49,745 bases of DNA from a virus (lineage: Duplodnaviria; Caudoviricetes). The notes under the pieces are model-generated. The model was not told the DNA's origin, did no database searches, and saw only the letters and a program-made list of their open reading frames with translations. How positions within the stretch are numbered: position 1 is the first letter of the stretch; each line of letters begins with the position of its first letter. The position numbers were made by a program, and so were the translations under genes. This document shows positions 4,771 to 22,311 of the stretch, piece after piece. The DNA lies in IMG/VR virus record IMGVR_UViG_3300049144_000149, positions 1 through 49,745 of that record; one strand, written 5' to 3'.

Positions 4771-7668
4771 TCAGATGATGAGGAAATCGTCGGCCGAGAG
4801 TGCGGCCTTGTTTGAGAGTGTGGCAAACTTTACCTGCGCGGCCGAGCCGGTGCCGTCTGCATCATAGTAGAGCGAGCCAGTCGCTCGGTCATAGATGATC
4901 CGGTCCTCTGCACCTTGCGCCCGGATGCCGGCAACAAACAGCTCAGCCTGGATGATCACCCCCTTGGCAGAGCCCGCGCCCAGTCTGCTGAACACCGCAT
5001 CATCCAGCACAATGCGGTCTTCTGATGCCGTGAAGTCCTGGATCACGTCCACGTTGCTGCTCTGGCTCAACTGGGTGTCAAACACGAAACGGTCATTACC
5101 CGAGCCACCATGGAGTGTGTCCTGGCCTGCCCCGCCAAAGAGCCAATCGTGACCTGAGCCACCGCTAAGCATGTCTCGGCCCTCACCACCGTACAGCCGG
5201 TCCTGCCCAGCCCCGCCCGAAAGCCGATCGGCATCTGCGCCACCTTCGACAAAGTCATTGCCGGAGCCGCCAGAGACGGTATCCCTTCCGGCATCGCCGT
5301 ACACCCGATCATTGCCTGTGCCACCCTGGACGTTGTCACGTCCGGATCCGCCATACACCCGGTCCTGACCGGAACCGCCAGACACCACATCGTTTCCTGT
5401 GCCGCCATACATCCGATCATTGCCCTCATCGCCGTAAAGCGTATCGTCGCCGCCCATCCCGTCGAGTATGTTCTGGCCTGAGCCGCGGCGCACGAGGTTG
5501 CCGAGTTCGTTGCCCTGAACGTCAGCGTTGCCGGACAGGGTGATGTTCTCGATGGTGTCCGGCAGGATCACCGTGCCGGAGCCGGAATAGTAAACATGAT
5601 CCACCCCGCTCGTGCCCAGAGAGGGTGTGAGCTGCGCCGGATCCGTGATGGTGATGTCCAGACCTCCCTCAGCGTTGGGCATCACGACCGGACCGGGATT
5701 GGAGTGAGGCGGGGCATTCTCAATGAGGATAGCGTGTTGGCCGGCGATGGAGTCCGCGCCGCCGGGCGCCGGCAGCGTCAGGATGGCATCATCCTGAGCG
5801 GCGTTCCGGATCGTTGCTCCATTGAGGACGAGAGCTGCCGTCGAGTGATAGTCCAGATCCGCGCTGACATCGCCTTCCTGTACCGTGTAGACGAAGGTCA
5901 GATCCCTGGTGCCGGATCCCGAGACATAGATTGCCCGACGATCTATAGCCCCCGTCTCTAGCAGGAGAGACGGGGTGCCCAAGCCCGTGTTTACGGTCAC
6001 CGCCTGATCGAAGCCTACGGTCATGAAGAGGGTGTCACCCGCCTTGTAGCGACCGTCCGGATTCGTGACGTTGACGCCCGTGACAGTCGGCTCCCGGCTG
6101 CTCACGGTGATCGCAATGACATCGCTATCGCTCTGGGCTCCCCCGGCTCCGGACGAGCCGAGATCGCTCGTCTCGATCTGGATGCTCGCGGGCCCGTAAT
6201 AGCCGGCATCAGGGGTGAAGATCATCCCGTTCAGAGCATTGTTGATGTCCGTGAGGCTTCCTCGGAAGGTCACCGTCGTGTCGGCAGCCCCAGTACCTAC
6301 GACGAAGCTCAATCCCGTGGTGCCCGACAAGGTCAGAAGGCCCTGGGCTGACGTTAGCTTTATGTTCAGCATTCCGCCGCCCACATCGGGATCCGAGATC
6401 GTGATGCGATTGCCGCTGGCGCCAGAGAATACAAGGGACGTTCCCCACTCTACTGTCTGGCGTCCTGGAACGGAATGCACTGGAGCGTCGTTGCTGGGCG
6501 CAATCGAGAGTTGAGTGTAAGCAGTCGAAGATCTAACCCAATGCTCGTCCATCACGGAATAGCTAATCGTTCGCGTATGAACTGCTCCATCAGCGCTCGG
6601 CTCATCACCAGCGAATGCGTAGGTTATCGACCGCAACGCAGCCTCCATCTCGGCTGCGGTCCCAACTCCGGCAAGTGACAACACATTGTCTCTCGGGTCG
6701 AAACGAACTTCGTAGGGGCCCGGAGAGCCAACCGTTAGCACGTCGCCCTGAGTAAAACCGTCGATCCAGATGTATGCGCCAACGATGTTGTCGCCTTCGT
6801 TATCGACCACGCTTACGGTGCTGAGTAATGGAAGAGGCAGGGCGTCCTCTGTCCAGGACACCGTGGCAGGTGCTCCTACGAGCTGCGGCTTTGAATTCAA
6901 ACTCAGTGTGACTGCCCTAGCAGCAGCGTCATACGAAGAGGCCCAGACATAGGCACTCAGATCGCCCTCAAGTCGCACAAAAGCTGAGGGAAGAATAAGC
7001 GTGTCGGTGACCGCTTTCCCATTAAGCGTGCTGAAATGCATCCCTTCGACAACGATCCGATCCCCGACACCGAAATCTCGAATGACATCGCCGCCAAGTT
7101 CCCATTCGGTGCCGATGAAGGTGTCGTTGCCTGATCCGCCGAGGAGAATGTCATCATCTTCCCCACCGCGAATCCGGTCGTCACCATCTCCGCCGCTGAT
7201 CTGGTCGCGTCCAGCATAGCCACTGATTGTGTCGTTACCTCCTCCACCCGTAATCTGATCGTGACCGGCTAAGAGAATAGCGGGCAGGTTCGAATTGGCA
7301 TGAGACCACAGTTCGGGATCATTTATAAATTCTGAGAAACCAGACCAACTTACAGGCGGCCTTGTATCGTTCCCGCTCGTTATCTCAAACTGAAGAACGG
7401 CTACTTGCTGGAACGTGCCCCCGCTCTGGATATACGCGCCGATAAAATTGATGCGCGAAGAGTAGGCTGATGACGGATCGGATGGCAAATTCTCGAATCC
7501 ATACCTAACCTGAAGCTGAGGAGATCCCTCGGCATCCTGAATACTTGCGTCAACCGCATTACTATTACCCCCAGGCATGCTGGCTGTGACAGGAATTCTC
7601 CCGTCGCCCCAGAAGTATTCTGTCGAAAACCCGATGGTTGAATGAATTCCAGTAATACGAGCAAACAT
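4771..7668 (-). CDS. RTX (hemolysin-type Ca-binding repeat) surface protein / adhesin, T1SS substrate
   Basis: Many GGxGxDxLx nonapeptides, Ig/cadherin-like repeats (NDAP), C-terminal LYYDADGTG...DFLII signal. Confidence 0.9.
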   Translation of the reverse strand: MFARITGIHSTIGFSTEYFWGDGRIPVTASMPGGNSNAVDASIQDAEGSPQLQVRYGFENLPSDPSSAYSSRINFIGAYIQSGGTFQQVAVLQFEITSGNDTRPPVSWSGFSEFINDPELWSHANSNLPAILLAGHDQITGGGGNDTISGYAGRDQISGGDGDDRIRGGEDDDILLGGSGNDTFIGTEWELGGDVIRDFGVGDRIVVEGMHFSTLNGKAVTDTLILPSAFVRLEGDLSAYVWASSYDAAARAVTLSLNSKPQLVGAPATVSWTEDALPLPLLSTVSVVDNEGDNIVGAYIWIDGFTQGDVLTVGSPGPYEVRFDPRDNVLSLAGVGTAAEMEAALRSITYAFAGDEPSADGAVHTRTISYSVMDEHWVRSSTAYTQLSIAPSNDAPVHSVPGRQTVEWGTSLVFSGASGNRITISDPDVGGGMLNIKLTSAQGLLTLSGTTGLSFVVGTGAADTTVTFRGSLTDINNALNGMIFTPDAGYYGPASIQIETSDLGSSGAGGAQSDSDVIAITVSSREPTVTGVNVTNPDGRYKAGDTLFMTVGFDQAVTVNTGLGTPSLLLETGAIDRRAIYVSGSGTRDLTFVYTVQEGDVSADLDYHSTAALVLNGATIRNAAQDDAILTLPAPGGADSIAGQHAILIENAPPHSNPGPVVMPNAEGGLDITITDPAQLTPSLGTSGVDHVYYSGSGTVILPDTIENITLSGNADVQGNELGNLVRRGSGQNILDGMGGDDTLYGDEGNDRMYGGTGNDVVSGGSGQDRVYGGSGRDNVQGGTGNDRVYGDAGRDTVSGGSGNDFVEGGADADRLSGGAGQDRLYGGEGRDMLSGGSGHDWLFGGAGQDTLHGGSGNDRFVFDTQLSQSSNVDVIQDFTASEDRIVLDDAVFSRLGAGSAKGVIIQAELFVAGIRAQGAEDRIIYDRATGSLYYDADGTGSAAQVKFATLSNKAALSADDFLII
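5090..5470 (-). repeat. Tandem RTX nonapeptide-coding repeats (27/54-nt period)
   Basis: GGxGxDxxY/S repeated about 14 times. Confidence 0.8.
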
Positions 7669-7875
7669 TGTTTCAGAATCCCCTGGCAACCCGGGCGCCG
7701 CAAGTACTAGTTACTCGGAAAGGTTAGGTAGCGAACTGGATGAACTTCCAATCCAAGCAGCTTACGTGACGTTTTAGCCGCTACTATATGTCTTGTCTAA
7801 GAAAATTGTCAGGATGGATAAAGGCGGCCGCGTAGCGGTGCGATAGATAGCTTGTCTGAACAAATCTGGCGTGCG

Positions 7876-9861: not shown

Positions 9862-10971
9862 ATGGGCTTACTCCGACTTTATCTGGCGCTCAGTGTAGTA
9901 ATGAGTCATGGCCTTGTTAATCTTTTCGGCGTCAATCTCCTTGATGGCGCCGGATCTGTATTGGTATTCTTCACTATTTCTGGCTTCCTAATCACCTATG
10001 CGGCGATCAAAAAGTACCCTAACACGAGTGAAGGTCTCAGAAAATTCTACTGGAATAGAGCAATACGTCTCTATCCGTCTTATTGGCTTTGGCTCATCTT
10101 CACGATCACGCTGCTATTTGCTTTGCCTGAGGGCTCTATTCGATATCAAAGCGTTTCGATTGACGGCTCGAATGAAATATCCGGGTTTTGGAAGGACCAC
10201 GCTGGAGCGGCGTCATGGTCAACCATTCTTTTGGCGGTCGTATCGAACATCACAGGCCTGTTCGCTGACTCCTTGCTAAACCTGTCCCTAAATCCTGATG
10301 GAGGCCTATCAATCCGTGGCGGCGATACGAACCTGCCGTGGGCAATGGGGTTCATCTTTATCGGACAGTTCTGGAGCATCGGCGTCGAGTTGATATTCTA
10401 TGCGATTGCCCCTTTCATTGTACGCAGTCCATTGAAAGCTTTTGTACTTCTTGCCGTTAGCGCTTCAGGCTGGCTCGGTGACAGCTGGAGATACATTGCC
10501 GAGGCGATGAGCATGCCGGCGGTATTCTTGACCTTGCGGGCTCCGAACAATCTTTGGCTCTTCATGCTCGGGAGCCTCTTGGCTCATGCCTACATCAGCG
10601 TCACAGAACGCGACGGCAGGTTGCATCCAGGGCCAATCCTGCTCACCGTGGCCGGCTATGGGCTTGTCCTTGCACGTGCTGGGGCATTGTTCCCTACTTC
10701 AGACTTTGTTTGGTGGCAGTTTTTCTCACTCACCCTGGCCACTCCTTGCCTGTTTTATCTGTCGACAAAGGCTCTGCCACGATGGCCGCGAAAGGTAGAC
10801 AATTTCATCGGCGACCTCTCTTACCCGGTCTACATCAACCATTTTCTCATCATTCAGATTGCCGGCACGTTGCTCCCACCAAGCGGCGCATTGTTCGCAG
10901 GACTTTCCTGCTCCGCTGCTGTAGCTATTGTTTTATTTGACCGTTCGATGAGTCGGCGCTTCAAACAGTAG
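9862..10971 (+). CDS. Acyltransferase family 3 (OafA/Oac-like) moron
   Basis: LR..LA.SV...H, FFTISGFLI, WSIGVELIFY, GDLSYPVYINH; polytopic; lower GC; antisense to late genes. Confidence 0.9.
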   Translation: MGLLRLYLALSVVMSHGLVNLFGVNLLDGAGSVLVFFTISGFLITYAAIKKYPNTSEGLRKFYWNRAIRLYPSYWLWLIFTITLLFALPEGSIRYQSVSIDGSNEISGFWKDHAGAASWSTILLAVVSNITGLFADSLLNLSLNPDGGLSIRGGDTNLPWAMGFIFIGQFWSIGVELIFYAIAPFIVRSPLKAFVLLAVSASGWLGDSWRYIAEAMSMPAVFLTLRAPNNLWLFMLGSLLAHAYISVTERDGRLHPGPILLTVAGYGLVLARAGALFPTSDFVWWQFFSLTLATPCLFYLSTKALPRWPRKVDNFIGDLSYPVYINHFLIIQIAGTLLPPSGALFAGLSCSAAVAIVLFDRSMSRRFKQ

Positions 10972-13375: not shown

Positions 13376-13894
13376 TCAGAACTCCAACACAGACCAGCGG
13401 ACGCGGATGCCGTAGGCCTGGAAATTATCAATGAAGAGCGTGGTGTTGTTCCAGCGGATGCGCCAGCCGTTGCCGGACTTCTTCTCGCCCTGATCGGCGT
13501 TCAGCATCCACGGCGTGCACCAGCCGATTTTGAGATCGTTGTTCCAATGCAGAGGCACGATGATCACGTTACCGCCGCTGAGCTGCGGGTCACGGTCCAG
13601 CCCGACCCACATCCCATCGTTCGATGGATCCGCCGAATTCGTATACATCGACTGCGCAACACCGATGGCGAGACCGGGGCTGTCCACCCCATGCGAGATC
13701 GTGCGCGTTCCAGGGCTGAGCGGATAGGCAGACTCCGGAACAGTTGTCAGCCCCGAGGCTGCTACGCGCGCTTGGATCGCGTCGGCATCGAAGATAAGTT
13801 GATCCAGGTCCGCCGTAGCAGCATCGAACCCCGGACGGGACACGCGGAACACGAACTCTGAGCCCACGTTCCCGAGAACGACACGACGCGCCAT
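13376..13894 (-). CDS. Tail-tip accessory protein, paralogue 3
   Basis: MARRVVLG..VSRPGFDA N-terminus shared with neighbours. Confidence 0.75.
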   Translation of the reverse strand: MARRVVLGNVGSEFVFRVSRPGFDAATADLDQLIFDADAIQARVAASGLTTVPESAYPLSPGTRTISHGVDSPGLAIGVAQSMYTNSADPSNDGMWVGLDRDPQLSGGNVIIVPLHWNNDLKIGWCTPWMLNADQGEKKSGNGWRIRWNNTTLFIDNFQAYGIRVRWSVLEF

Positions 13895-13897
13895 GGA

Positions 13898-14278
13898 TTA
13901 ACTTTCAGTCTGCATGACGGCGAACCATTGCACGGTGTCACCCGCAGCAAACCATGCGCCCGTCAGGGTGTCTTGAATGCTGGTGAGCGTGAACCCGGAG
14001 CGGGTCGCCTGTGTCCGGACGGTTGCTAGGCTGGGATAACTCCGCAACTGGCCGCAGAACACCAGGGGAATAGAGGGATATGTGCGGGCGAAGCTGATCG
14101 ACCGCGTGCCGCCGCCGCCTGGTACGACCGCCGAGCCTTCCTCGAGAACCATGCCGCGGCGGGTCGACATGTCGAAGAGCAGATCCGATCCGGACGCTCC
14201 CTGAACGTCAACGCCTGCTTTCGACACCCAGAGACCATAATCAGAGCCACGCTGGCCGAGAATGATACGACGCGCCAT
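13898..14278 (-). CDS. Tail-tip accessory protein, paralogue 2
   Basis: MARRIILG..VSKAGVDV. Confidence 0.75.
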   Translation of the reverse strand: MARRIILGQRGSDYGLWVSKAGVDVQGASGSDLLFDMSTRRGMVLEEGSAVVPGGGGTRSISFARTYPSIPLVFCGQLRSYPSLATVRTQATRSGFTLTSIQDTLTGAWFAAGDTVQWFAVMQTES

Positions 14279-14281
14279 CGC

Positions 14282-14701
14282 TCAGTTCTCCAGCAGGAAC
14301 CAGACCATGCCGTCACCTGATGGGAGCGTCACGTTCTCGAAAGCGGTTTTGGAGATCCTCAGCCTGTTTTCCTGCAGGACCAAACAATAGGGGTTATAGT
14401 ACCAATTAAACTGCCCCCCGGTTGTATAGTAAATGTAGTAATTGAAGAACATCCGCCCTCCACGCCTGAGCACGGCCAGCGTCGGCGGCGGGTTGGAGAA
14501 TGTCTTCCCGAGGTTGACCCATGCTCCCATGGAGTTGACAGAGCCTGTCGATGCCACCTTCGCGCTCGCTTGGCGCAACGCCGAGAACGAGATCTGCTTC
14601 GGGTTATTCACGTCGGCCGTCAGGGCATCGACGCCCCTGCGGGAGATGCGGAGGTCATAGGTGCCGTTGGTCATCTGACCCATCACAACGCGCCGCGCCA
14701 T
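14282..14701 (-). CDS. Tail-tip accessory protein, paralogue 1
   Basis: MARRVVMG..ISRRGVDA. Confidence 0.75.
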   Translation of the reverse strand: MARRVVMGQMTNGTYDLRISRRGVDALTADVNNPKQISFSALRQASAKVASTGSVNSMGAWVNLGKTFSNPPPTLAVLRRGGRMFFNYYIYYTTGGQFNWYYNPYCLVLQENRLRISKTAFENVTLPSGDGMVWFLLEN

Positions 14702-17700
14702 CAGGAGGCATCCCAGATTTCAAAGCGTCGGTCAGGGCCGCTGATCAGGAACCCGCCCGTTGTATAGCCGGGGCTTGATGAAACCGTGCCGATCTGAGCG
14801 CTGATGGCGGACAGGTTGAGCACGTTGATCTGGTTCGCGTTGACTGATCCGTCCGCGATGAAGTCGCCGCGCAGGACCATCCGGCCAACGCCGTTATGAG
14901 TGGCGATGGAGAAGACGGCTTCCTCCCCAAAGCCGGAGCCAGGAGCGCCAACGAGGAACTTATCGACTGCAATCTTGAACTCGCTCCGGAACGCGCCTGG
15001 CCCGCTCGCGCCGACGAGCTGAAATCCGCCGAAATAGCCGCCTGAGTTGACCGAGACTGTGTAGGCTCCGACAACCTGGCCGGTGATCGTAGCAATCGCG
15101 GTAAATTGCTGCTCGACACTGACCTCTAACTCATCGAATTGCGCCTCAACCGTGGTCGTGAGTTGTGCGATTGCACTCTCAGTATCGACCCTGACCTTGG
15201 CGACCTCGGTAATGGCGGCCCTGCCGCGCTCGTCCGCCTCCTCAGCAATCACCCGGCTCTCGCCGGCAAGATCCGCAACGCCATATTCAAGCGACAGGCT
15301 TTCCAAGTCCCGGCTCAATTGCGGGATCAGATCATCCGGTCGGATCTTCATGATGAAGAAGGAATTATCCAGCACCAACGGAGGCGGCGCGATCTGAACG
15401 ATACTGAAGACGCCGGTGACATTGCTTGCCGTGATCCCAGCCACCCGCAGGAAGATCGTTTGAGCCCCTCCGACGATCGCCTCAAAGGTGGTCGCGTCAC
15501 CTTCATAAGCCCGAACCCATGTGGCCCTGTTGTCGTAGGACACATCGGCGATATACCGGATGGCGCCCTTGGCCGGCTGCCAGCCCGCTTGCAGCACGAG
15601 GGTCATGCCGCGCTGGTAGACCTGCGCGCCCAGCGCTGTCACCACAGGGATTGACGGCGAGAAGATGTCGGGGATGGTCGGGAGCGGCGTGACGCCGGTC
15701 TCCGTGACCGTATAGACGATTGGATCGTCCAGCACGCCGGTCAGGGTGATGTGCTCCCCGTCCGTGTCAGGCACGCCTTCGGTGATGAGCACCCGGAAGG
15801 CGCGGGGCTCGGCGGGAGAGAAATCGGCGGTCGGCGGGTCGGCCAGATCGGAGCGAGCCAGCGCCTGCGCAAGGGTCATGCCCTGCCGCGTGGTCTCGGT
15901 TGCCATGTCGGTCGCATTGACAATGGCAATCCGCGCCGACGTGCCGCGCGTGACCCGCACAGGCCCCCAGGGGCGTCCGTCACGGCGCCGCACCTCGACA
16001 TAATGGTTGAGGGCGTTCGGATCCCAATTCAGCGGCTGATCGAAGGTGATCGCCCGCGCAGCGTCGTTGTAGCTGACGACCTCGGCCGACTGGCCCCAGG
16101 TTTCCGGCTGCTCGCAGGCCAGAACGACCAGATCGCCGCGCTTGAGCAGACGGCCTTCGGCCCGCGCCGTCCATGACACCATAATGCGGCGGTATTGGTT
16201 CTCGGCCGCCATGAAGCGGACAAGCCCCGCCGCCTGTGTCCGGTTGGTGACGCCAGGCAACTGCACGCGGGCAGGCTTGGCGAGCGTCACGCCGTCAGGG
16301 GCGGACGAGACCTCGGCCAGCTTGTAGGTTGTCCGGTCGATGTACTCCCCGACAATGCCGTCCGCGATGTCGTCATCGGCCAGCGTGTAGTCGATGGTCA
16401 GCGAGTCCTTCACGATATCGTAGTCGGTGAACATCATGCGCGGGATGCCGCGGGGTTCGTCCCTGACGATGGTCAGGCGGTCGCCCACAGGAGCAGGAAC
16501 AGCCCTGCCGGCCTTCAGAACCGTCTCGAGCGCATCATCCAGCGTCTGCGGCTCTTTGAAGACATGATCGAAGGTATGCCCCAGCGATGCCCAAAGCTGG
16601 TCGTAGGCATAGAACGATTGGAAATCGACCTGCTCCAACCCGAGGCCCGCCCCATAGTCGGCATTGCGCCACATATCGAGGGCGGCCCAGGCAATGGAGC
16701 GCGACTCCTGCTCGACAAACGACGATCCGTTCCAGACCGGCAGGATGCGGGTCGCGATGACGCCCACTTGGCCGTTCATGATGCCCTGCAGGTTCTCGGA
16801 GGCCTTCGCCTTGATGGCGATGGTCGTCACCCGCGGGAAACGGTTCGGGCCGTCGATCTGGGCACGCAGAGCCGACCAGACGACCTGATCCGCTCCCCCG
16901 CGCCTCTCATCCGGAGGCCACTCGTCAATCGGCACCATCGTGCGACGGGCGCGGACTTCCCAGCGGCCATCCGGGACATCGATCGACTCTGTAACGCGGA
17001 TCTGGCTCTGCTTGGCGTAGGTGTAGGTTTTGACCCAGAGGTCCGTCCAAGGGCCGACCGGCGCGCCGGCATCGTTCACACGACGCGACTGAACGATAAT
17101 TCCCACGCTGTGCGAGCGCACGTCGCCCTTCCACGTCTGAAACACGCCCGAAGGGAATACGAAGTCAAGCAGGAGCCTGAGAGCTGTCGTTCCTGCGGCG
17201 TTGGCTGTGAAGCCAGGCGTGAAGGTCGTGCTGAGTTCCAGGCCCGAGACCTCGGAGGCTGTGACGACGTTGACAGGGAAGAGCGTGACCTTCTCGTTCG
17301 GGTCGTAGATCCGGACCGTGATGCCCGGGAATGATGAGCTCGTGCCCCCGCTCTTGGTCCAGATGCGGGTGTCCGCAATCCGAAGCTCCTCAATGTCGTA
17401 CCTGCCACAGCCGACGCACAGGAGTGCATATTCCGTCATGTTGTCGCCGCTGTACTCGGAGTACTTGGGCGCAGCGAAATCAGGGAAGGACAGGGTGCGG
17501 CCATACAGGACCGGGATCGGCTGCAGCGGGCGAGCTTGGTTGCCACCGAAGCCGAAGGAATAGAGCTCTTCGCTCTCCGCCGTCTTGCCGCCTGCCTTGG
17601 GCTTGAGGAAGTGGCTGATCGCCATGGCCCCGCCTGCGATGAGCAGGGAGGCTCCGATGCCCGCCATGGTCGTTCCAGCGCCGAAGACCATGCCAGCGGC

Positions 17701-18050: not shown

Positions 18051-18473
18051 TTACGCTTTGCGCCGGAATATGCGGAGGTAGTTGAAACCAGATGCCCGAA
18101 GGGCTGGCAGGTCATCCACGACAACCCCTGATCGCCGGTCGATGTGGATCACAGCAGGCGTCGTGGCCGGGAAGATGTAGGTGCCGAGATGAAAGTCCCG
18201 CTTGGCGACGTTGCCCATGAGGACGAGATCAAGTTCACGCGCCTCGGCCTCGGGGATCTCCTCCCAGGCCTGCCGCTCGGGATGCGAGAGCATGGCCACG
18301 GCTTGGGCCCGGGTTGTGGGCTCAGCAAAGGAGACATCCGGCATCGAGACGCCAGCAAGCTCGGTCTGAATGTGACGGGCGAGGCCGTAGCAGTCGAACG
18401 AGGCAGGACCGCGCTCCCCGATCTTGTAGGGCTTGCCGATCAGGCTCTCATAGAAGGCGAGACGGTCAGTCAT
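18051..18473 (-). CDS. NlpC/P60 tail-associated peptidase (gpK-like)
   Basis: IGKPY...GP.SFDCYGL; H-L-G catalytic His. Confidence 0.88.
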   Translation of the reverse strand: MTDRLAFYESLIGKPYKIGERGPASFDCYGLARHIQTELAGVSMPDVSFAEPTTRAQAVAMLSHPERQAWEEIPEAEARELDLVLMGNVAKRDFHLGTYIFPATTPAVIHIDRRSGVVVDDLPALRASGFNYLRIFRRKA

Positions 18474-18684
18474 GGCGGGCCTGATCCCAGATCTCAAAGC
18501 GCATTCCGCCATCAGCATTCAGCCGAATGAGGTATTTGTCTGCTCGAACCTTAAATTCCGCAGGATCGGGGTGCTTGATAGTACGCACTTCGGGCCCTGG
18601 TTCCTTGGCAAGGGCTCTAGCCGCGGCCACTCCCGCAACAGGAGCCGCAGCCAAGAACCCGAAAAGCTTTCGACGTGAGAGCAT
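18466..18684 (-). CDS. Small twin-arginine-signal protein with gpJ C-terminal-like motifs
   Basis: MLSRRKLFG-hydrophobic-ALA; AGGAG RBS; stop overlaps NlpC start. Confidence 0.75.
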   Translation of the reverse strand: MLSRRKLFGFLAAAPVAGVAAARALAKEPGPEVRTIKHPDPAEFKVRADKYLIRLNADGGMRFEIWDQARHD

Positions 18685-18772
18685 GTGTCTACTCCTATGA
18701 AATCCGTCGCTAAGGGCCGGACTCGACTCCCCTGGCGGCCGTGTGCTTGTCTGATCCCCTTTGGAGGGGACG

Positions 18773-19345
18773 ATGAATTCGTCAGAAAGAATGAGTGGCG
18801 GCCAGTTTTACGCTCTAATTGGCTACTGCATTAACCAGTGGGCTTATGTCGATCAGACCCTAGCCGACTTCTGTCACCACGCTCTGGGATCTGATCTGAA
18901 GCGCTCATTCGTCGTCTACTATTACCAGAACGGCTTTGGGAGCAGGCTCAACCTTGTTTCAAAGTTGCTATCCACTCACGAACTGTCCGACGAGCACGCG
19001 CAGATTTGGAAGAGGCTTCGAGACAAGCTTCAGGAACTAGCGGGCTTCCGGAATGCCATTGCACATAGTCCGGTCCGATCTGTATCAGAGACCCGACTGG
19101 TAGAAGACGGTGGACAAAATGAAGGTGAGCCTCGCTACATCAGCCAATCTTGGTGGGAAGTCTATTCCGAGCAGAACGAGGTTCTGACAGGGAAGAAGGA
19201 AAAGATCTTCACTCAGGTTCATGTGATGGCTCATCTGAGCGAACTACAAAACTGCCATCAGCAGCTCGTCGAGCTTCTAATTGCAATCGGCGGTACGCAA
19301 ACCCAGCTTCCAGGATCCCCTCAATCAGCAGATCCTCTCCCGTAG
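18773..19345 (+). CDS. HEPN-like (RxxxxH) protein, moron
   Basis: RNAIAH motif in a helical protein; GGAGGG RBS; antisense to tail operon. Confidence 0.65.
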   Translation: MNSSERMSGGQFYALIGYCINQWAYVDQTLADFCHHALGSDLKRSFVVYYYQNGFGSRLNLVSKLLSTHELSDEHAQIWKRLRDKLQELAGFRNAIAHSPVRSVSETRLVEDGGQNEGEPRYISQSWWEVYSEQNEVLTGKKEKIFTQVHVMAHLSELQNCHQQLVELLIAIGGTQTQLPGSPQSADPLP

Positions 19346-19423: not shown

Positions 19424-19960
19424 TCACGACACCTGCAGGAGGCTCGGGAAGCGAACCATGTCATAGACCTCGCGCATTACGCGCATGTTCTGCGGGCGGG
19501 CGATGGCGAGTTGCCCCTCAAGCTGCCGTGCCGTGCGCTTCACGTTGCGCAGGATCAGCTTGTAGGGCCCCTGCCCGACCGTCATGGGATCGGACGCCAG
19601 ATAGCCGCGGAAGATTGCCTGAATGGGCGTGTTCATCTTCACGGCCTCATGCAGGTAGCGGGAGGCTTCCCGGTTCACGTTGTCGAGCCGGATGGTGGCC
19701 TCAGCACCGAGGTTGCCAATGCGAGGATAGTCGATCTCGAAAGGAATGGCCTTGAAGAGCACGACGGTACCTCCGCCCACCGGTGCGCCATCCTCCAGGC
19801 GGAAGCTGACATCGACGGTATTGCGCACGGCGCGGATCGGGGCAGGAGCGCCATTCTCCACAAAGGTCGGATGGATCAGCTCAATCGTGATGAGCATGAC
19901 CTCATCCTTGGGCGCGGAGGCGGCGGCCTCGGCCCAGGCTTGCGTTGCGGAAATCGGCAC
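19424..19960 (-). CDS. DUF1833-like tail protein (gpL position)
   Basis: TIELIHP...IRAVRN...RFPSL. Confidence 0.78.
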   Translation of the reverse strand: MPISATQAWAEAAASAPKDEVMLITIELIHPTFVENGAPAPIRAVRNTVDVSFRLEDGAPVGGGTVVLFKAIPFEIDYPRIGNLGAEATIRLDNVNREASRYLHEAVKMNTPIQAIFRGYLASDPMTVGQGPYKLILRNVKRTARQLEGQLAIARPQNMRVMREVYDMVRFPSLLQVS

Positions 19961-20332
19961 TTAGAGATCCCAAACGTCGAGGGAGAAGGAGACGTGAATT
20001 TTGTTGCCCATACGGTTCGCGGTGTATCGTCCGCCCTCGCGAAGCTTGACCCGCCGCACAGGGCATGCGGTGAGATCCCAGACCGGCATCTCGAACTCGG
20101 CCGCCCCATGCGAGAGGGTATCGCGCACGAAGGCCTTGAAGGTCTGGAACTGCGCCGTGGTCATCGGGATGGTGCGGTCGACAACACCGATCACTGTCGT
20201 GAACTGACGACGGGTTCGGACGTTGCCCGCCGTCATCTCGCTTTCAAGCACGCCGCGGAACGGCTCTTGAATGGCAGATGACGTGAGCGGGGTATGCGGC
20301 ACAGTGGCCGGCCATGCGGGGCGAGCCATCAA
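19961..20332 (-). CDS. Distal tail protein (gpM-like)
   Basis: WP..P...ESEM.AG..R.RR.FT; follows TMP. Confidence 0.72.
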   Translation of the reverse strand: MMARPAWPATVPHTPLTSSAIQEPFRGVLESEMTAGNVRTRRQFTTVIGVVDRTIPMTTAQFQTFKAFVRDTLSHGAAEFEMPVWDLTACPVRRVKLREGGRYTANRMGNKIHVSFSLDVWDL

Positions 20333-22311
20333 CGGCCTCCCATCGGGGAAACACCGAAGCGGCCCTTGAGCGACCTATCGAGCTTGCCGCTGGAGATCAT
20401 GCCGCTGAGCGCCTGCTCAAGCTGCACCTCGAGACGCGGCCCCTGCGGAGTGTTCGTCTGCCGGGTCTGCACTTCCGCGCCTGCATTGTTGATGATCTGG
20501 ACCTGCATGCCGCCGCTTGATCCGCCGCGAGGAAGGGCATGGTTCGGAATGATCGTCCCGTTCCGTCCGAAGGTAGCAAGCTCAGGGCCGTTCTCGCCCA
20601 CGAGGTAGGTCTTGCCGGATTGGACAGAGCCGCCTGAAGCGCGCGCCCCGCCGAAACTGCCGAACAAGGAGGAGAAGATGTTTCCGCCGCCGCCCGCCCC
20701 GCCGAACATCCCCTTCAACGCAGAGTCGAGCGCCAAATCAAGGAGTCGGTCGCCCACTCGCTTGAGAGCGTTCTGCAGAGCGTCCGCTGCACTCGCTCCG
20801 TCCATGAGATCGGACACGAAGCCCTTGATCGTGGAACTGGCAAGCTGCTGAAGTTCTTGCTGCGTGGCGTTGGCCGACTTCAGTTTGTCGCTCATCTGAG
20901 CATAGGCTTCTGCCAGCTGCTCGACGTTCGCTCTCTGCTCACCCGAAAGAGTGACACCCTCCCGCTGAAGAGCGTTTTCGACTTGCATGATCGTGCGGGC
21001 TTTTTCCCGCTCGACGTTGCTCTTGCCACGCATCTCGAACTCAAGTTCAAGCGCGCGGGTGGCGTTCTGAATATCCGTGATCTCCTGAGCATAGGCTTCC
21101 CGCCTACGTTCAGCATCGCTTTCGGCCCGCCGTGCCGCCTGCTCCGACTTCCGTTCGGCCTCCCTGCGGGCTTTCTCGGCCGCCGCCTCTGCTTCACGGT
21201 CCCGGAGACGCTGCTGGGCCTCAAGATAGGCACTATCAACCTGCGCCCGCTCGCCGGGGGTGCGGGCATTCTCTATCGCTCGCTTGTAGGCCTCCTCGGC
21301 CCTGAACTCCCCTGTGGTCGGCAGGCCGATCTTGGCCAGATCAGACAAAGCGCTCTTGAGTTCTTTGACGGATCCAACCTGCCCCGCGGCAACATCACCG
21401 ATGAGGCCGATGGCACGCCGAGCCGTCTCAAGGGCGGTCTCAACGTCATAGGCCTCCTTCGACAGGGAGAGCAGTTCGGCGCCCAGCTTGGCGATCTTCT
21501 CATCGCCCGTATTCTGGTTCACAATCTCCGCAACGGCTGCCTGGAACGCCCGGATATTCGGGGTGCCGTTCTTGGCCTCGTCGCGCAGTCGCTGGATTGC
21601 GGCGGCGAATGCGTCGTACTTGGCCGCCGCCTGATCCACTTCCGCGGTATCGACCTCAATCGTGCCGATATTGGTCATAACGCCGCTGGGCGTGGCGCTC
21701 GCGGCCCGGCCGATGGTCGTGGCAAGCTTTTCTAGATCGTCCTGAAGCTTGACGATCGAGGCGCGGGTCTGTGCCTCAAGGACGGCTGTGCTCTGCTTGG
21801 CATAGTCCTCAAGCCCCTCGGCCGCCTCGCCATAGGCATCCTTGATCTGCTTGATGAGGTCGGCATGCGTCTTCAGGCGGTCGTCCAGCGTCTCGGTGTC
21901 GCTAACCATGCCCGAGACATACTGGATCGCGGCGCCACCGAGGGCGATGATGCCGATCGTCGCGAGACTGATCGGGCTCACGACCGAAGCGAAGGCCGCG
22001 CCAAGCGACTTCACCGCACCAGCCGCGCCGCCCTTGCTCTCACCCAGGACAGCCGCGATCTGCGTTCCCTGCTGAAGGGCCACGGTGAGAGGCGAGGTGC
22101 CGCTCGCCAGCTGGACGCCGATATCCTGAAACTGTGCCGCCAGGTTGGCCGTCTGCCCCTGAAGGTTGTCGTTGACCGCCTTGAAGCGGCCCTCGATCTT
22201 CCGGGTTTCCTTCTCGACCGATCCTGTAAGCTTCTGCAGCTCCTTGTTGAAGGTCGTGAACCTCGCCTCCATGGAGACGACAAGGCGTTGCATATCGACA
22301 GCTTCAGCCAT
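20329..22311 (-). CDS. Tail tape measure protein
   Basis: QFQDIGVQLASG.SPL..ALQQG motif; C-terminal GG.V..G..YLVGENGPEL. Confidence 0.92.
   Translation of the reverse strand: MAEAVDMQRLVVSMEARFTTFNKELQKLTGSVEKETRKIEGRFKAVNDNLQGQTANLAAQFQDIGVQLASGTSPLTVALQQGTQIAAVLGESKGGAAGAVKSLGAAFASVVSPISLATIGIIALGGAAIQYVSGMVSDTETLDDRLKTHADLIKQIKDAYGEAAEGLEDYAKQSTAVLEAQTRASIVKLQDDLEKLATTIGRAASATPSGVMTNIGTIEVDTAEVDQAAAKYDAFAAAIQRLRDEAKNGTPNIRAFQAAVAEIVNQNTGDEKIAKLGAELLSLSKEAYDVETALETARRAIGLIGDVAAGQVGSVKELKSALSDLAKIGLPTTGEFRAEEAYKRAIENARTPGERAQVDSAYLEAQQRLRDREAEAAAEKARREAERKSEQAARRAESDAERRREAYAQEITDIQNATRALELEFEMRGKSNVEREKARTIMQVENALQREGVTLSGEQRANVEQLAEAYAQMSDKLKSANATQQELQQLASSTIKGFVSDLMDGASAADALQNALKRVGDRLLDLALDSALKGMFGGAGGGGNIFSSLFGSFGGARASGGSVQSGKTYLVGENGPELATFGRNGTIIPNHALPRGGSSGGMQVQIINNAGAEVQTRQTNTPQGPRLEVQLEQALSGMISSGKLDRSLKGRFGVSPMGGR

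Follow-up and report, generated by a model that had tools for sequence, protein, structure and literature searches.

A tail-operon microprotein of Microvirga-type phages that joins a twin-arginine-type leader to a variable mosaic of tail-tip motifs

We found that a 72-aa microprotein encoded in the tail operon of a temperate siphophage joins a twin-arginine-type leader to a mosaic of short motifs that resemble the tail-tip proteins of such phages (Table 1). The window, that is, the whole stretch of 49,745 nucleotides that was analysed (virus record IMGVR_UViG_3300049144_000149), carries integrase, repressor, terminase, portal, capsid and lambda-like tail-operon genes, and its closest relatives were found in Microvirga records. 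In those relatives the leader stays nearly constant while the part behind it changes.

Anatomy of the window gene and its likeness to J

Table 1. Positions in the window of the microprotein gene, its parts and the neighbouring tail genes
Feature	Position	Strand	Basis or remark
72-aa microprotein (twin-arginine-type leader plus tail-tip motif mosaic)	18466..18684	(-)	ORF, homologues, HMMs
AGGAG ribosome-binding site, 7 nt 5' of the microprotein ATG	18692..18696	(-)	sequence
Predicted Tat-type signal, residues 1-26: SRRKLF, 16 uncharged residues, R23, ALA cleavage-like site	18607..18684	(-)	
Microprotein residues 29-40	18565..18600	(-)	aligned to the L017 stretch that matches DUF1833 APIRAVRNTVD
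EFKVRADKYLI, putative copy of J fibre motif	18526..18558	(-)	matches J EFKIAVDKFLV, 14950-14982
RFEIWD, putative copy of J terminal strand	18484..18501	(-)	matches J RFEIWD, 14710-14727
NlpC/P60 tail protein (gpK position)	18051..18473	(-)	GKPYKIGERG motif resembled by L016
Central tail fibre J, 1115 aa	14701..18048	(-)	mimicked motifs 14950-14982 and 14710-14727
MARRV paralogue 1	14282..14701	(-)	predicted docking on J terminal strand
MARRV paralogue 2	13898..14278	(-)	
MARRV paralogue 3	13376..13894	(-)	mostly beta model
DUF1833 minor tail protein (gpL position)	19424..19960	(-)	motifs 19811-19843 and 19733-19756 resembled by relatives
Tape measure protein	20329..22311	(-)	C-terminal motif 20593-20640
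190-aa insert in the DUF1833-NlpC slot, possible HEPN-type gene	18773..19345	(+)	specific to the window among the examined loci

The original prediction had described an open reading frame with an AGGAG ribosome-binding site that is coupled to the NlpC gene, and these elements were confirmed, the stop codon of the microprotein overlapping the NlpC start by 8 nt. In most relatives the AGGAG overlaps the DUF1833 stop codon, and a folding prediction, run without a control, paired the ribosome-binding site with the leader mRNA. The label gpL for the DUF1833 protein is positional, because this protein has no clear solved relative by sequence.

The mature part contains two motifs that match J at the predicted places, EFKVRADKYLI and RFEIWD, which are 8 residues apart in the microprotein and 74 residues apart in J. 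When the mature part was scored against an HMM built from the C-terminal 140 aa of 28 related J proteins, it reached 6.8 bits and exceeded all 200 shuffles, and the EFK motif and RFEIWD each separately exceeded the 95% null. By this comparison the J likeness of the window microprotein exceeds chance. The mimicked motifs of J lie in its PF09327 region and at its terminus, and the mimicked region aligns with solved J-like fibres. For residues 29-40, the DUF1833-type match was not significant in the window microprotein itself. At the DNA level, RFEIWD matches J at 17 of 18 nt, as had been noted; the match is real, but there are six such near-repeats within the window, and given the six identical residues its probability is about 0.08-0.10 with the actual codons and 0.33 with average codon bias, so it is a weak independent sign of recent copying and adds little beyond the protein match. 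In the EFK motif, the identical residues are mostly encoded by different codons in the microprotein and in J. Searches of Pfam, PHROGs, NCBIfam and PADLOC gave no family match for the window microprotein, nor did it match any of 50,697 GenBank phage records, in which P0062 gave three chance-level matches. The best ESM Atlas lead reached 0.88, the leads being to unnamed viral clusters.

The leader was compared with known Tat signals. TATFIND works with sets of permitted residues at the signal. Its rule, as described in PMC8047123, asks for an RR motif within residues 1-35 and, behind it, an uncharged run of 13 residues or more. The window leader, with SRRKLF and 16 uncharged residues, fits a TATFIND-type rule, and the uncharged run is present in all 20 Microvirga-type members and in 44 of the 45 members of a second family described below. 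The curated Tat-signal HMMs PF10518 and TIGR01409 (Pfam, NCBIfam) did not match the window leader, and the relative P0017 reached 12.6 bits on TIGR01409, below the cut-off of 16.7; the predicted twin-arginine-type signal is therefore upheld by the rule but not by these models. Across the 20 Microvirga-type members the leader varies at only one of its first 15 positions, and 16 of them have Lys or Arg at position 23, the four exceptions being tape-measure-type members. A basic residue near that position is typical of Tat signals. None of the 20 members has a cysteine in the first 35 residues, so they lack the lipobox of an Llp/Cor-type lipoprotein. TatC was found in both host genomes tested, each of which carries a relative of the gene. 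The leader may direct Tat targeting.

The leader peptide is unchanged in L013 and L016 although silent changes are many. Among close loci, leader codons 1-15 are nearly invariant at silent sites and codons 17-27 are nearly saturated; RNA-level control or a recombination anchor is possible at 18640-18696 (-), a stretch that also takes in the ribosome-binding site with its predicted pairing. Small open reading frames with a similar RR-LF-FLA leader were also seen in two unrelated phage contigs (L006:1044-1340 (+) and L140:2395-2585 (-)); as labelled by eye, one adjoins replication-type genes and the other follows a terminase-like gene.

A shared leader, a fixed slot and changing motifs

The neighbouring NlpC gene is present in 8 of 76 Microvirga genomes. 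A protein search yielded 17 of 24 candidates, each of which started with the identical 15 residues and then diverged, and a profile search added one more. The Microvirga-type family set comprises 20 members, in which L018-L023, identical and on one contig, were counted once; these six copies lie about 49.5 kb apart on a 301-kb contig and are likely an assembly concatemer. L010 was dropped as a false positive.

In all 13 distinct carrier loci the gene sits between DUF1833 and NlpC on the tail-gene strand. Its ATG lies 9-10 nt past the DUF1833 stop in 8 of the 13, leaving no promoter room, and its stop overlaps the NlpC start in 11. The microprotein is alone in the slot in 8 of 13 loci, and a constant adjacent defence partner is absent. 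No promoter-like site came up between 18000 and 20000 in an E. coli-type scan, and by eye the DUF1833 3' ends of carriers and empty loci gave no sign of an internal promoter. This arrangement points to late lytic, translationally coupled expression. Among 30 loci reached via NlpC alone, 10 carry the gene, 15 have DUF1833 and NlpC directly overlapping and 5 have other inserts, and on a tree of 33 loci the presence of the microprotein changes 8 times, at least 5 of these changes being forced by well-supported branches. Because of the empty slots and the changes on the tree, we regard the gene as accessory and often gained or lost. Its patchy presence is weakly clustered against shuffles (26/500) and alone does not demonstrate an arms race.

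Other genes also enter the slot. A different 50-aa hydrophobic gene occupies it in L028 and L039, and Methylorubrum-type loci have several other inserts; as such inserts recur, the DUF1833-NlpC slot appears to be an insertion hotspot. L027:5832-6005 (+) is a 58-aa slot gene without the leader, in which a J-like stretch is joined to one that presumably resembles the N-terminus of the BrnA antitoxin. This gene had no NCBIfam match, and P0008 ends in the same BrnA-like stretch. The opposite-strand 190-aa insert of the window is not needed for the presence of the microprotein. It has an RNAIAH stretch, which we take to be a HEPN-like motif, a weak HepT match (E 0.034) and no PADLOC match, and its position within the late operon resembles the non-contiguous tai/ati operon. 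Elsewhere in the window, an acyltransferase-3 gene (9862-10971 (+)) lies on the opposite strand between the tail and lysis genes, and a 972-aa RTX-repeat protein (4771-7689 (-)) is encoded beyond the lysis genes.

The mature parts of the 20 members were tested against HMM tiles of related tail proteins with 200 shuffles each, the truncated J of L062 being excluded. For the final 140 aa of J, 12 of the 20 scored above every one of the 200 shuffles, and 3 further ones did so for the final 140 aa of the tape measure; six of these matches belong to one subfamily, so that the number of independent cases is smaller. None of the 20 beat the shuffles on six tiles of J 1-835 or on the preceding tape-measure tile, and 5 had no clear match to the J or tape-measure ends. 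Matches were found in the coding frame for 14 of 20 members versus 0-2 in each of the five other frames. The expectation that homologues keep both halves thus held for the leader in 20 of 20 and for tail-tip motifs in most (15/20).

Mapping of short matches revealed mosaics of DUF1833 and J pieces in L017, L018 and P0009, of two J segments in reversed order in L013, and of the tape measure with a weaker J-end match in L053. L016 has an NlpC-like motif resembling GKPYKIGERG, the C-terminal motif of the tape measure (20593-20640) is resembled by L016, L053, P0013 and P0018, and P0014 independently matches a tape-measure family in PHROGs (E 6e-4). A simple compressed duplication of J, as first proposed, does not account for relatives that also carry tape-measure, DUF1833 and NlpC motifs. 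The terminal Asp of many members was considered as mimicry and discounted where the ATGACTGA overlap with NlpC forces that residue.

The mature part is mostly under purifying selection: among 10 pairs of the window's subfamily, dN/dS was 0.20-0.34 in 7, dS was saturated in 2, and one close pair gave about 0.85. At identical residues, 76 of 155 codons are identical, close to the codon-usage expectation. L018 has a 22/23-nt match to DUF1833 genes, and because of this match we consider it likely that DNA copying creates the mosaic pieces, which are afterwards maintained as peptide. We also ranked own tail proteins of members among those of their relatives. The own J ranked 10, 1, 19, 1, 6, 3 and 26 of 28, and the own tape measure ranked 8 and 31 of 33 in the two clear cases; by these rankings the motifs are neither avoiding nor preferring the phage's own proteins. 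The co-variation of the motifs with the cognate J that the original prediction anticipated was thus not observed, and a recent duplication of the phage's own J was rejected on the spread of these ranks and the codon identity. The window and L012 have near-identical tails and differing microprotein motifs.

L048, a more distant locus, has a different twin-arginine leader in the same DUF1833-NlpC slot. Its family has 45 relatives, and those with an organism name are all from Methylorubrum, Methylobacterium or their family. Because the Microvirga-derived HMMs scored this Methylorubrum-type family poorly, we retested it against J proteins of its own group, excluding the truncated J of L073. On the last 330 aa of J, 30 of 45 mature parts beat all 60 shuffles, and none of the 45 did so in the three control sets (two N-terminal J tiles and tape measures). 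All 41 matches scoring at least 50 fall 120-700 aa from the J end, so that the presumed receptor end, the final 120 aa, has none. Seven of seven loci fetched by the leader are in a tail-tip operon, four before NlpC and three before J, and the own-J ranks were 8, 6, 1 and 3 of 10. As far as these comparisons go, the pattern of a leader followed by tail motifs repeats in a second phage group with a different leader. A HMMER search also gave 33 further short leader relatives, four of which matched structural PHROGs at E < 0.01 in the scan. The mature parts of these (P0066, P0067, P0075 and P0078) resembled tail collar, major head, tape measure and tail spike families, matches that we treat as leads only.

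Possible functions of the mosaic

The three MARRV paralogues that follow J (13376-14701 (-)) had no Pfam, PHROG or NCBIfam match, and the model of the third had no match to a solved structure in the PDB at E<=0.001. MARRV genes were not detected in six loci whose complete J has a different end type (L013, L016, L031, L033, L039 and L053), which suggests that the trio is a swappable heterotrimeric tip module. We co-folded three copies of the mature peptide with the three paralogues and obtained a score of 0.65, compared with 0.40 for the best control. Of 157 solved complexes, 116 reach the mark used, as do 2 of 215 mismatched pairs, and these figures are only roughly valid here. The runs share at least 95% of contacts, and the fold of the peptide itself is uncertain because partner pLDDT is at least 43. 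In the models, the peptide pairs through its residues 60-68, which include the RFEIWD strand, with the first ten residues of every MARRV paralogue. The model supports, and does not show, that the peptide reproduces the adaptor-docking strand of J, and J itself would dock on the MARRV N-termini. The co-fold may also reflect memory of a similar fibre. The earlier proposal that the peptide binds the tip paralogues gains support from this model.

These observations are best explained, in our view, by a late-expressed decoy against Tai/Tab-like defences that is removed to the membrane by Tat, a reading that we put just short of an even chance. The microprotein would be made late in the lytic cycle, translationally coupled with the tail-tip genes, and its motifs would bind defence proteins of the host or of a prophage that act against tip subunits, the RFEIWD strand reproducing the surface by which J may dock the MARRV trio. 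The Tat leader would take the bound defence protein to the translocase, by hitchhiker export or by tethering, and would also limit damage to the phage's own assembly; the turnover of the mosaic would be the signature of an arms race. We prefer this reading because the gene would be expressed late and lies next to the proteins that it resembles, is optional and variable, and shows neither self-avoidance nor self-specificity; such a lack of self-avoidance or self-preference is expected for a bait made of shared features. The two regions most often mimicked are the J C-terminus, the target of Tai, and the tape measure, the target of Tab. The decoy idea of the original prediction survives in this altered form, with cytoplasmic defences a more likely aim than incoming tails.

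Several points count against the decoy. Binding support from the models is only for MARRV proteins of the phage itself, and the same co-fold fits assembly interference equally and implies a cost to the phage. The defence protein bound would be a hypothetical one, and Tai is reported from beta- and gamma-proteobacteria alone. A sensor that reads a fold may not recognise motifs as short as 6-20 residues. The unmatched Tat HMMs, the 5 of 20 members without a clear motif and the one dN/dS of about 0.85 also count against it. In a broader form, which we consider doubtful, such proteins would be a general class of modular baits in alphaproteobacterial phages, with a fixed Tat leader and a quickly rebuilt patchwork of virion motifs, the sensors being expelled by Tat hitchhiking; the motifs would come from the tail tip here and possibly from capsid, collar and spike in other leader relatives.

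Interference with tail assembly is a rival that we hold to be unlikely while giving it appreciable weight. The mosaic would bind unassembled tip subunits (the MARRV trio, J or tape-measure partners) of co-infecting or co-induced phages, or would tune the phage's own tip, pulling these subunits to the membrane. The predicted placement of RFEIWD on the MARRV N-termini in the co-fold is in its favour, as is L053, where the microprotein has a J end of the MARRV type, the J of the locus has a different end and a MARRV gene was not detected, and tail-assembly blockers are described as prophage weapons (PMC11364771, PMC10884400). However, the blockers covered in the accessible text of these two papers are on the opposite strand with their own promoter, whereas the microprotein is coupled into the late operon and the scan found no promoter-like site around it. 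Nor is there self-avoidance, as the window copy matches its own J end exactly and the own-J ranks are spread. A periplasmic role, by which the exported peptide blocks the receptor or jams the DNA-entry conduit of later phages, strikes us as quite improbable. It fits the Tat-type leader with its basic residue at position 23 in 16 of 20 members, the tape-measure motifs in 4 members and the precedent of small exported exclusion proteins near receptor-binding genes (T5 Llp, PMC9586334), but it does not fit the timing or the parts mimicked. The late-operon coupling, with no promoter room in 8 of 13 loci, speaks against the receptor blocking and lysogen superinfection exclusion of the original prediction; the absence of the early cysteine in all 20 members sets the family apart from Llp/Cor-type lipoproteins; and the mimicry concerns shaft and adaptor-docking strands of J, the final 120 aa having none of the 41 second-family matches. 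The predicted MARRV target strands would, moreover, be occupied in the mature virion.

The two remaining readings fit least. We give a small chance to an assembly helper or minor virion part, either a placeholder strand that shields the edge strands of the tip until J arrives or a membrane-active tip peptide; translation coupled with the tip genes and the modelled contact with the MARRV N-termini agree with it, but the gene is absent from 20 of 30 related loci, the motifs differ between the near-identical tails of the window and L012, and an export signal would be unnecessary for such a role. That the gene is a relic or filler, in which pieces of neighbouring genes behind a translated leader persist only for the translational coupling of NlpC, is very unlikely. 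The 22/23-nt match of L018 makes DNA copying likely and leader codons 1-15 are nearly invariant in DNA among close loci, as a relic would allow, but the matches are concentrated in the coding frame, dN/dS is 0.20-0.34 in 7 of 10 pairs, only 76 of 155 codons agree at identical residues, the leader peptide is unchanged in L013 and L016 despite many silent changes, and relatives with an empty slot couple DUF1833 and NlpC directly.

If the microproteins are decoys, they would represent a new principle of counter-defence, removal via the host's own export path; their copied motifs would map the tail-tip surfaces that bacterial defences recognise, and would be ready baits for fishing sensors in Alphaproteobacteria. 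If the broader bait class is true, each mosaic would list virion epitopes recognised by host defences, and if the proteins are tip-assembly poisons, the interfaces of the tail tip would be defined by natural peptide inhibitors. With genes shorter than 125 codons and environmental bacteria as hosts, every reading is directly testable.

Comparison with known systems

Among envelope-targeted proteins, phi80 Cor and HK97 gp15 are small phage exclusion proteins encoded near tail or receptor-binding genes, and Llp and Cor are lipoproteins that bind the receptor. The microprotein is like T5 Llp, phi80 Cor and HK97 gp15, as far as the sources describe them, in being small, apparently envelope-targeted and near tail or receptor-binding genes; unlike Llp and Cor it has no N-terminal cysteine and is similar to tip proteins of the phage itself. 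Tat hitchhiker export, in which a signal-bearing subunit carries partners without a signal, is described for HybOC and PaoABC (PMC4273604, PMC8047123). In these accounts it belongs to enzyme assembly, and its use by a phage to remove proteins is our extension.

Escape mutations from Tai map to the C-terminal region of J (PMC11364771), the region most often mimicked by the microprotein family, and Tab targets the tape measure protein (PMC10884400). Tai is described as a constitutively expressed gene on the opposite strand, with reports restricted to beta- and gamma-proteobacteria, and its counterpart Ati as a small sense-strand counter-defence gene of the late operon that is paired with its own Tai (PMC11364771); the accessible text of that paper does not state whether Ati is like J. 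Anti-Tab is likewise a sense-strand late gene overlapping its neighbour (PMC10884400), but it lies between terminase genes and is always paired, and the accessible description mentions neither an export tag nor a tail-motif mosaic. The microprotein does not have the opposite-strand layout and own promoter of the Tai/Tab defences, being on the sense strand and coupled. It shares with Ati and anti-Tab the layout of a small sense-strand late gene overlapping its neighbour, and lacks, as judged at the slot only, their pairing with an adjacent cognate defence gene.

The closest decoy logic is that of DSAD1 (anti-DSR2), where the phage protein and the tail tube compete for the sensor DSR2 (PMC11087589), and by analogy the microprotein may act like DSAD1 or anti-Tab. 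Our literature search, outside whose coverage most subscription papers fall, found no description of an export leader joined to a mosaic of self-tail motifs. DSAD1 and the microprotein have in common that a phage protein competes, or would compete, with a tail subunit for a host sensor. DSAD1 is one protein for one sensor, with an export signal and copied tail sequence unmentioned in the accessible part of PMC11087589, whereas in the microprotein a fixed leader precedes motifs of several tip proteins in variable combination.
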